NCBI RefSeq assembly: GCF_003334815.1
Contig: NZ_QOWO01000007.1
Direction: 5' to 3' (one strand)
Origin: Escherichia coli
GTDB lineage: Bacteria; Pseudomonadota; Gammaproteobacteria; Enterobacterales; Enterobacteriaceae
Length of the DNA stretch: 64,000 bases
The notes beneath the pieces are model-generated. The model searched no databases. It saw only the letters and a list, made by a program, of their open reading frames with translations, and was not told the origin of the DNA. Position 1 is the first letter of the stretch, and every line of letters begins with the position of its first letter. This document shows, in pieces, positions 1 through 17,279 of the stretch. The translations under genes were made by a program, and so were the position numbers.

Positions 1-324
1 GCCCACGGTGAAGCTATCGTTAACTATCTTGCGCGTAAAGAGGCAGCAACACACAGTGGACGTCGGCGGAAAGGGGAAACACGGAAACTGGATTACGCGT
101 TGCTAGGTTGGGCTATATCGGCAAATTTGGGGAGGGAATGGGCGTTACGCATTGCCCCTTCGCTTTCTTCGGCGATTCGCGCTCCAGAGATTGCCCGTAA
201 CGGCGTTTTATTCTCATTACAGACGCACCTAAGTTGCGGGGCCAATACCAGTTTGTTGGGGCGAAGTTATTCCGGTGGTGGTGCTGGCGGCGGCGCGGGT
301 GGCGGAGGCGGTGGTGGCTGGTAA
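1..324 (+). CDS. yciQ: 3' end of an upstream membrane-protein gene (probably DUF2207 family YciQ); C-terminal fragment with a Gly-rich tail
   Basis: Frame 1 is open from base 1 to a TAA at 322-324; tail reads ...SGGGAGGGAGGGGGGGW; position upstream of rluB fits recalled K-12 order (yciO-yciQ-rluB). Identity is from synteny memory only. Confidence 0.5.
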   Translation, partial: AHGEAIVNYLARKEAATHSGRRRKGETRKLDYALLGWAISANLGREWALRIAPSLSSAIRAPEIARNGVLFSLQTHLSCGANTSLLGRSYSGGGAGGGAGGGGGGGW

Positions 325-451
325 TTAAGCTGATGTTAATCGAAACAAGCTTTAACCATAAAGATAGTGTAGTATGTTGCGCCTCAAAGCCAGGCCGATA
401 AACGTCGAGTCGTTTACTTAAGGCCTGAAGAGTTCAAACAGACTTTACTAT

Positions 452-482
452 CAGTGAGTCAGATGTAAGTTCTGACTCACTG
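452..482. other. Perfect 12-bp stem hairpin in the yciQ-rluB spacer
   Basis: CAGTGAGTCAGA - tgtaagt - TCTGACTCACTG; no U-tract follows. Confidence 0.55.
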
Positions 483-534
483 TTGCACAAAAGCATATCA
501 GACGCCTGGGAAGGCGACACCAAAAGGAAGCTCT

Positions 535-1410
535 ATGAGCGAAAAGCTACAGAAAGTGCTGGCGCGTGCCGGCCACGGTTCTCGCCGTGAAATCGAATCT
601 ATTATTGAAGCCGGTCGTGTGAGTGTTGATGGCAAAATTGCTAAACTCGGCGATCGTGTTGAAGTTACCCCTGGATTGAAAATCCGTATCGATGGTCACC
701 TGATTTCGGTACGTGAGTCCGCTGAACAAATTTGTCGCGTTCTGGCCTATTACAAACCGGAAGGTGAGTTGTGTACCCGTAACGATCCGGAAGGACGTCC
801 AACGGTGTTTGACCGTCTGCCAAAACTGCGTGGCGCACGCTGGATTGCCGTGGGTCGCTTGGACGTTAATACCTGTGGTCTGCTGCTGTTCACCACCGAT
901 GGTGAACTGGCAAACCGTTTAATGCACCCAAGCCGTGAAGTTGAACGTGAATATGCCGTGCGTGTATTTGGTCAGGTTGACGACGCGAAACTGCGTGATT
1001 TGAGTCGTGGCGTGCAGTTGGAAGATGGTCCGGCAGCTTTTAAAACCATCAAGTTCAGCGGCGGCGAAGGGATCAACCAGTGGTACAACGTGACTCTGAC
1101 CGAAGGCCGTAACCGTGAAGTTCGTCGTCTGTGGGAAGCGGTTGGTGTGCAGGTGAGCCGCCTGATCCGTGTTCGTTACGGTGATATCCCACTGCCAAAA
1201 GGTCTGCCACGCGGTGGCTGGACGGAGCTGGACCTCGCCCAGACTAACTATCTGCGCGAACTGGTGGAGCTACCGCCAGAAACCAGCTCTAAAGTCGCTG
1301 TAGAAAAAGACCGTCGTCGCATGAAGGCGAATCAGATTCGTCGTGCGGTGAAACGTCACAGTCAGGTGAGCGGCGGTCGTCGTTCTGGCGGACGTAATAA
1401 TAACGGTTAA
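535..1410 (+). CDS. rluB: 23S rRNA pseudouridine synthase RluB
   Basis: 291 aa; N-terminal S4-like region and RsuA/RluB-type catalytic motif [17 protein letters not shown]; basic C-terminal tail. Confidence 0.93.
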
Positions 1411-1417
1411 TCAAAGT

Positions 1418-1444
1418 ATGCCGGACGTCATATCCGGCATTTTT
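1418..1444. terminator. Bidirectional intrinsic terminator between convergent rluB and btuR
   Basis: Hairpin ATGCCGGA-cgtcata-TCCGGCAT followed by TTTT on the + strand and A-tract on the other side. Confidence 0.75.
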
Positions 1445-1449
1445 ACAGA

Positions 1450-2040
1450 TTAATAATCGATCCCTATCTGCGCTTTTACACCGGCATCAAACGCATGTTT
1501 GACGGGGCGTAATTCACTTACCGTATCTGCCAGTTCAAGAATATCCCGATGACAACCACGACCCGTGATAATCACCGTCTGTTGATGTGGACGTTCATTT
1601 AACGCCTGCACCACTTCTTCCAGTGGCAAATAGTCATACGCCACCATATACGTCAGTTCATCAAGCAAAACCATATCCAGTGAGGAATCAGCAAGCATCC
1701 GCTTTGCATGTTGCCAGACTTCGCGGCAGGCGGCGGTATCAGACTCGCGGTTTTGTGTATCCCAGGTAAAGCCCGTTGCCATCACCTGAAACTCAACGCC
1801 ATGTGGCTCCAGCAGATTGCGTTCGCCATTAGGCCAGGTGCCTTTAATAAACTGCACGACGCCTACTTTTTTTCCGTGACCAACTGCGCGTGTTGCCGTA
1901 CCAAATGCCGCGGTGGTTTTGCCTTTTCCATTGCCGGTAAAGACGATGATAATACCGCGTTCATCCTGGGCCTGGGCCACACGAGCATCTACTTTTTCTT
2001 TCACTCGCTGCTGACGCTGTTGGTAGCGTTCATCACTCAT
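1450..2040 (-). CDS. btuR: Cob(I)yrinic acid a,c-diamide (corrinoid) adenosyltransferase
   Basis: 196 aa; P-loop GNGKGKTTAAFG; stop/start overlap with yciK (operon). Confidence 0.93.
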   Translation of the reverse strand: MSDERYQQRQQRVKEKVDARVAQAQDERGIIIVFTGNGKGKTTAAFGTATRAVGHGKKVGVVQFIKGTWPNGERNLLEPHGVEFQVMATGFTWDTQNRESDTAACREVWQHAKRMLADSSLDMVLLDELTYMVAYDYLPLEEVVQALNERPHQQTVIITGRGCHRDILELADTVSELRPVKHAFDAGVKAQIGIDY

Positions 2041-2795
2041 TGGGAAATTCCTGGTTTACGGCCCGGTTGGGCGTCAAAGGTCATGCCGGTTTTACGGCGG
2101 CTGTCATCGCCCATCAGCCAGAGGTAGAGCGGCATGATATCAGCGGGTGTTTTAAGTTTCTGTGGATCTTCGGTCGGGAAGGCGCTGGCACGCATTGCGG
2201 TGCGCGTACCGCCTGGGTTAATGCAGTTGACACGCAGGCGCTGCTGATATTCATCGGCCAGTACCTGCATCATCCCTTCGGTGGCAAATTTCGACGCTGC
2301 ATATGCACCCCAGTTGGCTCGTCCCTGACGTCCAACGCTTGATGAAGTAAAGACCAGTGAACCGGCGTCCGATTTGAGTAATAAAGGAAGCAGTGCCTGG
2401 GTGAGCATAAAGGTGGCATTAACGTTGACCTGCATGACGTCCTGCCAGACCTGCGGATTTTGTTCGCTCATTGGGCAAACATCGCCGAGCAATCCGGCAT
2501 TATGCAAAACACCATCCAGACGCGGATAATTAACGGCAATGCGCTGTGCCAGTTGTTGGCAATTTTCGGACGTGCAGGTCAGCAAATCGAGAATAAACCA
2601 CTGTGGCTGACGCCCAGTTTCTTCGTTTATGTGGCTGGCTACCTGACGTAATTTTTCTTCATTACGGCCCAACAGAATCACTGTCGCACCATAGCGTGCA
2701 TACGTCATCGCGGCTTCACGACCAATACCATCGCTGGCTCCCGTCACCAGGATAATGCGATCATTGAGTAAATCTTGTTTTGGCTGGTAATGCAT
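2037..2795 (-). CDS. yciK: Short-chain dehydrogenase/reductase family oxidoreductase YciK
   Basis: 252 aa; Rossmann motif VTGASDGIG; overlaps btuR start by 4 nt. Confidence 0.9.
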   Translation of the reverse strand: MHYQPKQDLLNDRIILVTGASDGIGREAAMTYARYGATVILLGRNEEKLRQVASHINEETGRQPQWFILDLLTCTSENCQQLAQRIAVNYPRLDGVLHNAGLLGDVCPMSEQNPQVWQDVMQVNVNATFMLTQALLPLLLKSDAGSLVFTSSSVGRQGRANWGAYAASKFATEGMMQVLADEYQQRLRVNCINPGGTRTAMRASAFPTEDPQKLKTPADIMPLYLWLMGDDSRRKTGMTFDAQPGRKPGISQ

Positions 2796-3014
2796 GGCTA
2801 CTCCTCAACGACGTTGTCTGTCGCGCTGCCAGTGTACTTTATGACTTTGGGGCTTTATGCCTGAAACAGAAGGGCATTTCAATCAGCCTGGGGCGATAAC
2901 ACCGCAAAATGGATACTTTGTCATACTTTCGCTGCAATAACATCTCTGCGAGACGGCTTAACATGCCTGTTGTAAACTGTGAGCCAAAGCGTTGTTTAAC
3001 CAAGGTGGGGACTC

Positions 3015-4064: not shown

Positions 4065-4069
4065 AAGAC

Positions 4070-4097
4070 AAACGCGAGGCTAAGACCTCGCGTTTTG
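4070..4097. terminator. Terminator between convergent sohB and yciN
   Basis: Stem AACGCGAGG / CCTCGCGTT with loop ctaaga, then TTTT. Confidence 0.7.
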
Positions 4098-16667: not shown

Positions 16668-16672
16668 CATAA

Positions 16673-16698
16673 AAAGCCACGGATATATCCGTGGCTTT
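16673..16698. terminator. Terminator between convergent yciH and osmB
   Basis: Perfect palindrome AAAGCCACGGAT-at-ATCCGTGGCTTT with an A-tract on the + side (U-tract for osmB) and T-rich downstream for yciH. Confidence 0.7.
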
Positions 16699-17011: not shown

Positions 17012-17279
17012 AATACTCTCTCCTGAATTTATGATTCACGGAAGTAAGCTCTCTATAACTATAATAGCTAAGAATAAGCCTGGTGAAATTATTCCGTGAA
17101 ATCTGCTCGCGCGCAGGGTTATATCACGCAGGTGATAATGACTTCCTGTTATATCGCTGATAATAATTTTATATCTTGAGAGTGTTAATAACAGGTAAAT
17201 AGTCTTAATTATCAACCAGGAATCATCTTAGAGCGGATGATTTGCCAAACTGCAAATCATCCGTAGAGAAGGGAAATGG

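Follow-up and report, generated by a model that had tools for sequence, protein, structure and literature searches.

A conserved stem-loop in the RNA leader of rluB in Escherichia coli and other Enterobacterales

The messenger RNA of rluB in Escherichia coli carries in its 5′ untranslated region a perfect hairpin that we read as a cis-acting RNA stem-loop, and comparison across the Enterobacterales suggests that it is a conserved, previously undescribed and fairly ordinary kind of RNA leader element. The window, by which we mean the whole stretch of 64,000 nucleotides analysed here, is from a K-12-like E. coli chromosome; it has 100% identity to many strains, and MG1655 is identical to it over the region compared. 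MG1655 coordinates equal window coordinates plus 1326317, an offset that was fixed via the Term-seq tables of Adams et al. (PMC7815308) and then verified. The hairpin (452–482) lies between the yciQ (DUF2207) stop codon at 322–324 and the plus-strand gene rluB (535–1410, with its ATG at 535), which encodes the 23S rRNA pseudouridine-2605 synthase; all of the leader features given below are on the plus strand. Its arms, CAGTGAGTCAGA at 452–463 and TCTGACTCACTG at 471–482, are 12 nt long and 100% complementary, and enclose the 7-nt loop TGTAAGT (464–470), with the sequence, a repeat finder and the covariance model described below all placing the stem here. A sequence-only reading had reported just such a stem and loop some 50 bp upstream of rluB, without a following U tract and too distant from the yciQ stop to be an obvious terminator. 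All of this is borne out: the stem ends 52 nt before the rluB ATG and begins 128 nt after the yciQ stop, on the 3′ side of the rluB promoter and transcription start site (TSS), and it is followed by TTGCACAAAAGC and hence not by a U tract.

Folded alone, the hairpin has a predicted energy of −20.1 kcal/mol (z = −5.4), and none of 200 shuffled sequences folds as well. The window has three loci with a perfect stem of 12 bp or more and a loop of 3–10 nt, versus 0.03 expected per dinucleotide-shuffled 64-kb window. The hairpin is single-copy, the median over 3977 E. coli genomes being one site each; we considered and rejected a REP/BIME repeat, as there is also no REP consensus, and a start-stop open reading frame (ATG-TAA) in the loop at 463–468, which is buried beside the stem and is not conserved in a divergent Escherichia allele (L002). 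We note that two other perfect hairpins are present in the window, at 17233–17263 and 61949–61984 (a 12-bp stem and 6-nt loop in the first, a 16-bp stem and 3-nt loop in the second), and that stems of 10–11 bp with flanking A and T runs lie at 4069–4095 and 16672–16698.

The element is transcribed as part of the rluB message. The SMRT-Cappable-seq supplement (PMC6131387) gives a transcription unit at 1326700–1327761 containing b1269 alone, and the TSS of this rluB-only unit, MG1655 1326700, corresponds to C383 in the window; the hairpin therefore occupies nucleotides +70 to +100 of a 152-nt rluB 5′ UTR (383–534). A second TSS at 1326297, inside yciQ, likewise gives rluB-containing transcripts (PMC6131387). 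Mapping of transcripts in the yciQ–rluB spacer, which the sequence-only reading had proposed as a check, thus finds the element covered, with full-length reads running from the TSS at 383 to the rluB terminator. The Term-seq tables for K-12 (PMC7815308) contain no RNA 3′ end in the yciQ–rluB spacer and list only the 3′ end after rluB, and the hairpin does not terminate transcription in K-12, where full-length units from the two TSSs cross it. An antisense 3′ end is reported within rluB at window position 622 (MG1655 1326939, minus strand; Adams et al., supplementary file 2).

The rluB promoter was located solely through the published TSS, 7–8 nt upstream of which is a −10 hexamer, TAGTAT (370–375), followed by a G+C-rich discriminator, GTTGCGC. 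A consensus scan of 200–700 called no plus-strand promoter or terminator, having missed the rluB promoter because its −35 region is weak; the E. coli −10 region is homologous to CTGTATACTACGCGGCC and GTGTAGTATGTGCG of other genera. The discriminator region at 370–383 (TAGTAT-GTTGCGC-C+1; ACGCGGCC in other genera) resembles those of stringently controlled rRNA promoters.

The fold of the RNA from 383 to 560 has a predicted energy of −58.3 kcal/mol (z = −4.4), and the TSS and fold together describe the 5′ UTR as a series of separate hairpins with the Shine-Dalgarno sequence AGGAAG (525–530) left unpaired. Two hairpins are predicted by folding upstream of the 452–482 stem: hairpin a at 391–427 (CAGGCC..UAAACG-ucgagu-CGUUUA..GGCCUG), which is E. 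coli-specific, the sequence at its position being different in other genera, and the small hairpin b at 429–446. A long-range stem pairing 363–378 with 437–452 was set aside, because its 5′ arm precedes the TSS and is therefore absent from the main transcript. A putative MazF site, ACA at 487–489, occupies the single-stranded linker directly 3′ of the stem; in Table 1 of PMC5001579 the entry for rluB gives a 'cleaved ACA' at 49 nt from the start codon, a distance at which there is no other ACA. MazF cleavage at 487–489 would strip both upstream hairpins off the rluB mRNA.

Conservation of the stem was assessed by comparing the upstream regions of 80 rluB loci fetched from Enterobacterales genomes; the protein search gave close relatives only, and the leader comparison thus covers this order. 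With the arms located in homologues by an anchored 3′ arm, a recognisable stem is present in leaders from Kosakonia, Leclercia, Enterobacter, Shimwellia, Pseudocitrobacter, Cedecea, Erwinia, Pluralibacter and Yersinia, the basal 10 bp of the homologous stem being CAGTGAGTTA / TAACTCGTTG. Pairing extends to 89% of cells in the 25 homologous leaders, and both sides have changed in 7 of 10 pairs, a result matched by none of 500 shuffles and to be compared with 32–50% pairing in slid controls. A covariance model (R1) built from 15 leaders with E. coli left out has a single match in the 64-kb window, at 448–522 (61.6 bits, E = 2e-11), in which 452–482 is aligned to the model helix. Applied to 90 sources the model aligned 73 leaders of all types, and in 72 leaders the 10-bp helix is 87.6% paired, versus 34–49% in slid controls, with double changes at all 10 pairs (143 cells). 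These pair counts come from structure-fitted alignments, and the contrast is weaker in a control in which both arms are freely chosen, where shuffled sequences already reach 8.2 of 10 pairs versus 9.4 observed. The departures from Watson-Crick pairing are informative as to the molecule concerned, as there are 24 G·U cells and two A·C cells, which indicates rluB-sense RNA and not duplex DNA or the opposite strand.

Taken with the transcript data, these sequence comparisons show what we take to be a transcribed, sense-strand RNA helix that is under selection for pairing and that belongs with rluB, not with yciQ. The sequence-only reading had placed an rluB leader or operator here. The leader stands, on the TSS at 383 and the full-length reads; the operator is not supported, since the sequence of the arms varies freely while the pairing is kept, with compensatory changes in other Enterobacterales, and since the stem of sister genera is shaped like an intrinsic terminator. 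A spacer with no transcript over the element, or a failure of pairing in other Enterobacteriaceae, would have counted against that reading, and neither is seen because the element is transcribed and its pairing conserved. More broadly, nearly all Enterobacterales have a helix between the rluB promoter and an invariant GNRA hairpin beside the ribosome-binding site, which in E. coli lies at 501–518: of 80 distinct leaders, 76 contain a hairpin of 5 bp or more that ends no more than about 25 nt from the invariant one, and in homologous leaders the spacing between the two is nearly constant at 17–18 nt. The stems differ in length and in stability, from −1.5 to −25 kcal/mol, and leaders with a strong TATAAT promoter have a weak stem (−1.5 to −7 kcal/mol). 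In the interval between promoter and hairpin, some 60–110 nt upstream of rluB, several non-E. coli leaders (L016, L022, L023, L035, L046) have four tandem TTGTGTGACA-like units of about 12 nt each (UGUGUGACA, UGUGUGACA, UGUUUGCCA, UGUGUACCA).

The variation within E. coli is of two kinds. Of 5426 complete genomes 3977 have the region, 2635 of them in identical form, and the only common polymorphism is C479T (approximately 1340 genomes), which changes a G-C pair to G·U; T is the state of other genera, and the perfect C479 allele is therefore derived. The divergent allele L002, CAGTGGGGCAGG-tgataaa-TCTGCCCCACTG, differs by two double compensatory changes, its flanks being otherwise nearly identical. 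The second kind is presence or absence of yciQ together with the E. coli-type leader. Approximately 940 of 4918 matching E. coli genomes are without yciQ and have yciO directly upstream of rluB with another leader, in which a different hairpin, AAAAUGGCGC-uauac-GGCGCCAUU, is found; homology to the window restarts at 501 (window 1–500 compared with L081, E. coli 2015C-3905). The yciO–rluB spacer is a hotspot across genera, yciO adjoining rluB in some and unrelated genes or yciQ being inserted in others, and among the rluB loci fetched yciQ is upstream of rluB in E. coli only. In the Enterobacterales loci compared the hairpin stays with rluB irrespective of the gene upstream. We note also that the C-terminal tail of YciQ (271–321) is low-complexity and glycine-rich (GGGAGGGAGGGGGGGW).

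What the hairpin may do is suggested in part by its homologues. About half of the homologous leaders have UUUUUGAAAG or a similar sequence after the stem, and in 32 of 76 leaders there are at least four U residues in the eight bases after the hairpin. The Kosakonia copy (L035), a stem followed by TTTTTGAAAG, scored as terminator-like, a metagenomic variant (L103) has a G+C-rich stem followed by UUUUU, and in Enterobacter and Lelliottia a hairpin comprising an A tract, a G+C stem and a U tract lies a few nucleotides after a start site that is itself predicted from homology with the E. coli promoter. The U-rich tract that L035 and L103 have is lacking in the window, where UUGCACAA comes after the stem. 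The U run is missing from Yersinia, Serratia and some Pantoea leaders as well as from E. coli, and termination is therefore not a universal role of the element.

The reading that we favor, while giving it slightly less than even confidence, is that the E. coli hairpin descends from a leader attenuator and is now a non-terminating block of structure and stability, a mechanism that we infer with the help of general knowledge of 5′ UTRs. The ancestral form would have been a leader attenuator, and versions with a U run would act as a partial intrinsic terminator, damping rluB transcription and also blocking read-through from any upstream gene. The E. coli lineage would then have exchanged UUUUUG for UUGCAC and lengthened the stem, leaving what is most likely a stable, non-terminating block that pauses or insulates transcription. 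Such a block would prevent base pairing between the initiation region and the variable leader sequence upstream and would impede 5′-end-dependent RNase E in reaching the downstream message, and it would thereby set the level and stability of rluB mRNA. The element is like known leader terminators and attenuators in being a stem-loop between promoter and ribosome-binding site, with a U run in many genera, but the E. coli copy differs from them in having no U tract and in not terminating; we found neither an anti-terminator nor a leader peptide or ligand-binding domain, and no alternative anti-terminator pairing is evident in the leader folds. Similarly, it shares with the stabilising 5′-UTR stem-loops of the ompA type and with RNase E obstacles a very stable helix and a free Shine-Dalgarno sequence downstream, but it lies 70 nt from the 5′ end in E. 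coli and not at the end itself.

The chief alternative, which we consider improbable, is that the hairpin is a relic without present function, a leader-terminator descendant that is kept perfect not by selection but by template-switching palindrome correction, acting intramolecularly on quasi-palindromes. The loss of the U tract in E. coli, leaving a non-terminating element, is consistent with this, as are the derived state of the perfect C479 allele and the replacement of this leader by one with another hairpin in the approximately 940 yciQ-less genomes; the coupled two-arm changes in L002 are also expected from template switching. Template switching yields Watson-Crick palindromes, however, and so does not explain the 24:2 excess of G·U over A·C, nor does it explain the persistence of a stable stem at one position in genera with unrelated sequences.

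A site acting in DNA, either a palindromic operator or an IHF site just 3′ of the promoter that modulates rluB transcription, seems to us unlikely, and somewhat more so than the relic. The case for IHF comes from the relatives: an exact minus-strand core, WATCAANNNNTTR, is present at one constant position in 22 of 85 loci, versus 0.5% of shuffles, and about 16 further loci match at 8 of 9 positions (AATCAA and TTA are fixed and N4 varies), the core site coinciding with the 3′ arm of the hairpin. The leaders with an exact core include L029, L030, L044, L051, L063, L064, L069 and L074, among others, and in these it lies 26–40 nt upstream of the invariant hairpin. In E. coli, however, the best match is 7 of 9 and is on the other arm, and the core has been lost there; moreover, G+C-rich variants such as L103 retain the stem and the U run but lose the IHF core, and our literature search gave no link between IHF and rluB. 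A DNA site is also at odds with the conservation of pairing but not of arm sequence, with the variation at all 10 pairs, and with the G·U pairs, which are meaningless in duplex DNA. As an intergenic inverted repeat whose 3′ arm in relatives has an exact IHF core the element has some likeness to IHF sites and REP-BIME palindromes, from which it differs in its single copy and in the poor fit of the E. coli arms to the core.

The invariant hairpin downstream is more striking than the 452–482 stem itself. It has the form GACGCCUG(G/U)GAAGGCGAC and spans 501–518, with a G501-C518 closing pair, an A502·A517 mismatch, 5 bp (503–507/512–516) and a GNRA loop at 508–511. Neither the 85 genome loci nor the 108 distinct leaders show any difference in its sequence except at the second loop position, where 59 of the 108 have U and 49 have G, exactly the freedom that GNRA permits; in 103 of the 108 leaders it ends 14–16 nt before the AUG. 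A metagenome scan for the invariant motif gave 120 matches, of which 79 are chance matches in G+C-rich, coding-like sequence, mostly with a GCGA loop. The remaining 41 all precede rluB, and as every non-chance match is thus an rluB leader there is no sign of a regulon. We note that GACGCCUGAGAAGGCGAC, with a GAGA loop, is present in metagenome contigs L124 and L146 in an A+T-rich context (CTTAATGCCT...TAAAAGCC) with no rluB downstream, and is the sole non-rluB match that is unlike G+C-rich coding sequence.

This raises the question of whether the two hairpins form an autoregulatory operator, in which RluB or another ribosome-biogenesis protein binds 501–518 and represses translation, with 452–482 as an auxiliary helix. 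The substrate of RluB is 23S helix 93 (H93). The crystal structure paper for RluB with RNA (PMC3919597) describes it as an isolated 21-mer in which seven base pairs are accompanied by the A2602 bulge and a loop of 4 nt; RluB holds the loop end through its S4 domain, with U2605 flipped out. The 501–518 hairpin resembles H93 in having seven stem levels, with a closing G-C pair and the A·A mismatch level with the target pair A2589-U2605, and a GUGA loop in 59 of 108 leaders; it differs in having no A2602 bulge and in having an A, not a U, at the target level. It also lies just 5′ of the Shine-Dalgarno sequence, and in this position and its H93-like size and loop it recalls the substrate-mimic autogenous operators such as the thrS operator and ribosomal-protein leaders. 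The nearly constant spacing between the hairpins and the invariance and placement of 501–518 ahead of the AUG are consistent with a two-hairpin operator, but the 452–482 element varies in sequence, length and stability in a manner unlike a specific protein site. Mimicry of H93 by 452–482 itself (GUGAGUCAG compared with GUGAGACAG) was rejected because the likeness is E. coli-specific and near chance level; unlike the substrate-mimic operators, this stem has no conserved resemblance to H93. The hairpin at 501–518, 20 nt downstream, would be a better operator candidate than 452–482, its likeness to H93 being one of shape only. We consider a two-hairpin operator doubtful, on a level with the DNA site, and think it similarly doubtful that rluB is under autogenous control through its leader, in which 501–518 copies H93 and 452–482 is an attenuator or scaffold of the same leader. 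Were it so, free RluB would dock on 501–518, 14–16 nt from the AUG, and block initiation, and RluB synthesis would be coupled to the supply of unmodified pre-50S particles.

Two further explanations fare worse. That the hairpin terminates yciQ or upstream read-through transcription is suggested by the presence of a stable stem 3′ of yciQ with terminator-like homologues in other genera, but we regard it as very unlikely given its distance from the yciQ stop, its position downstream of the rluB promoter and TSS, and its missing U tract; in addition, the TSS inside yciQ gives rluB-containing transcripts, no 3′ end maps to the stem, and the homologous stem is present where yciQ is absent. Least likely of all is a site for RNase III or another double-strand-specific nuclease that controls rluB mRNA decay, for although a perfect 12-bp duplex does lie in the 5′ UTR, typical RNase III substrates are of about 20 bp, the homologues have mismatches and G·U pairs, and the literature searched gave no link between rluB and RNase III cleavage.

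The favored reading is that of a leader-attenuator descendant which may now act as a stable block in the rluB message. The element seems to have escaped description: RefSeq has no annotation at the rluB leader, Rfam gives no match at E values up to 10 for window positions 1–3000 and none at gathering score at the leader in 8 related loci, rluB is absent from the supplement of an attenuator survey, and searches that included the terms yciQ, UTR, RNase III, IHF and sRNA found no published study of the rluB leader or of rluB regulation. The mRNA for a 23S rRNA pseudouridine synthase has a long, structured and undescribed leader even in E. coli K-12, in which one helix is conserved in structure and free in sequence, and a second is an 18-nt hairpin that is invariant across the Enterobacterales. 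This leader provides a concrete entry point to how the synthesis of an rRNA-modification enzyme is set.
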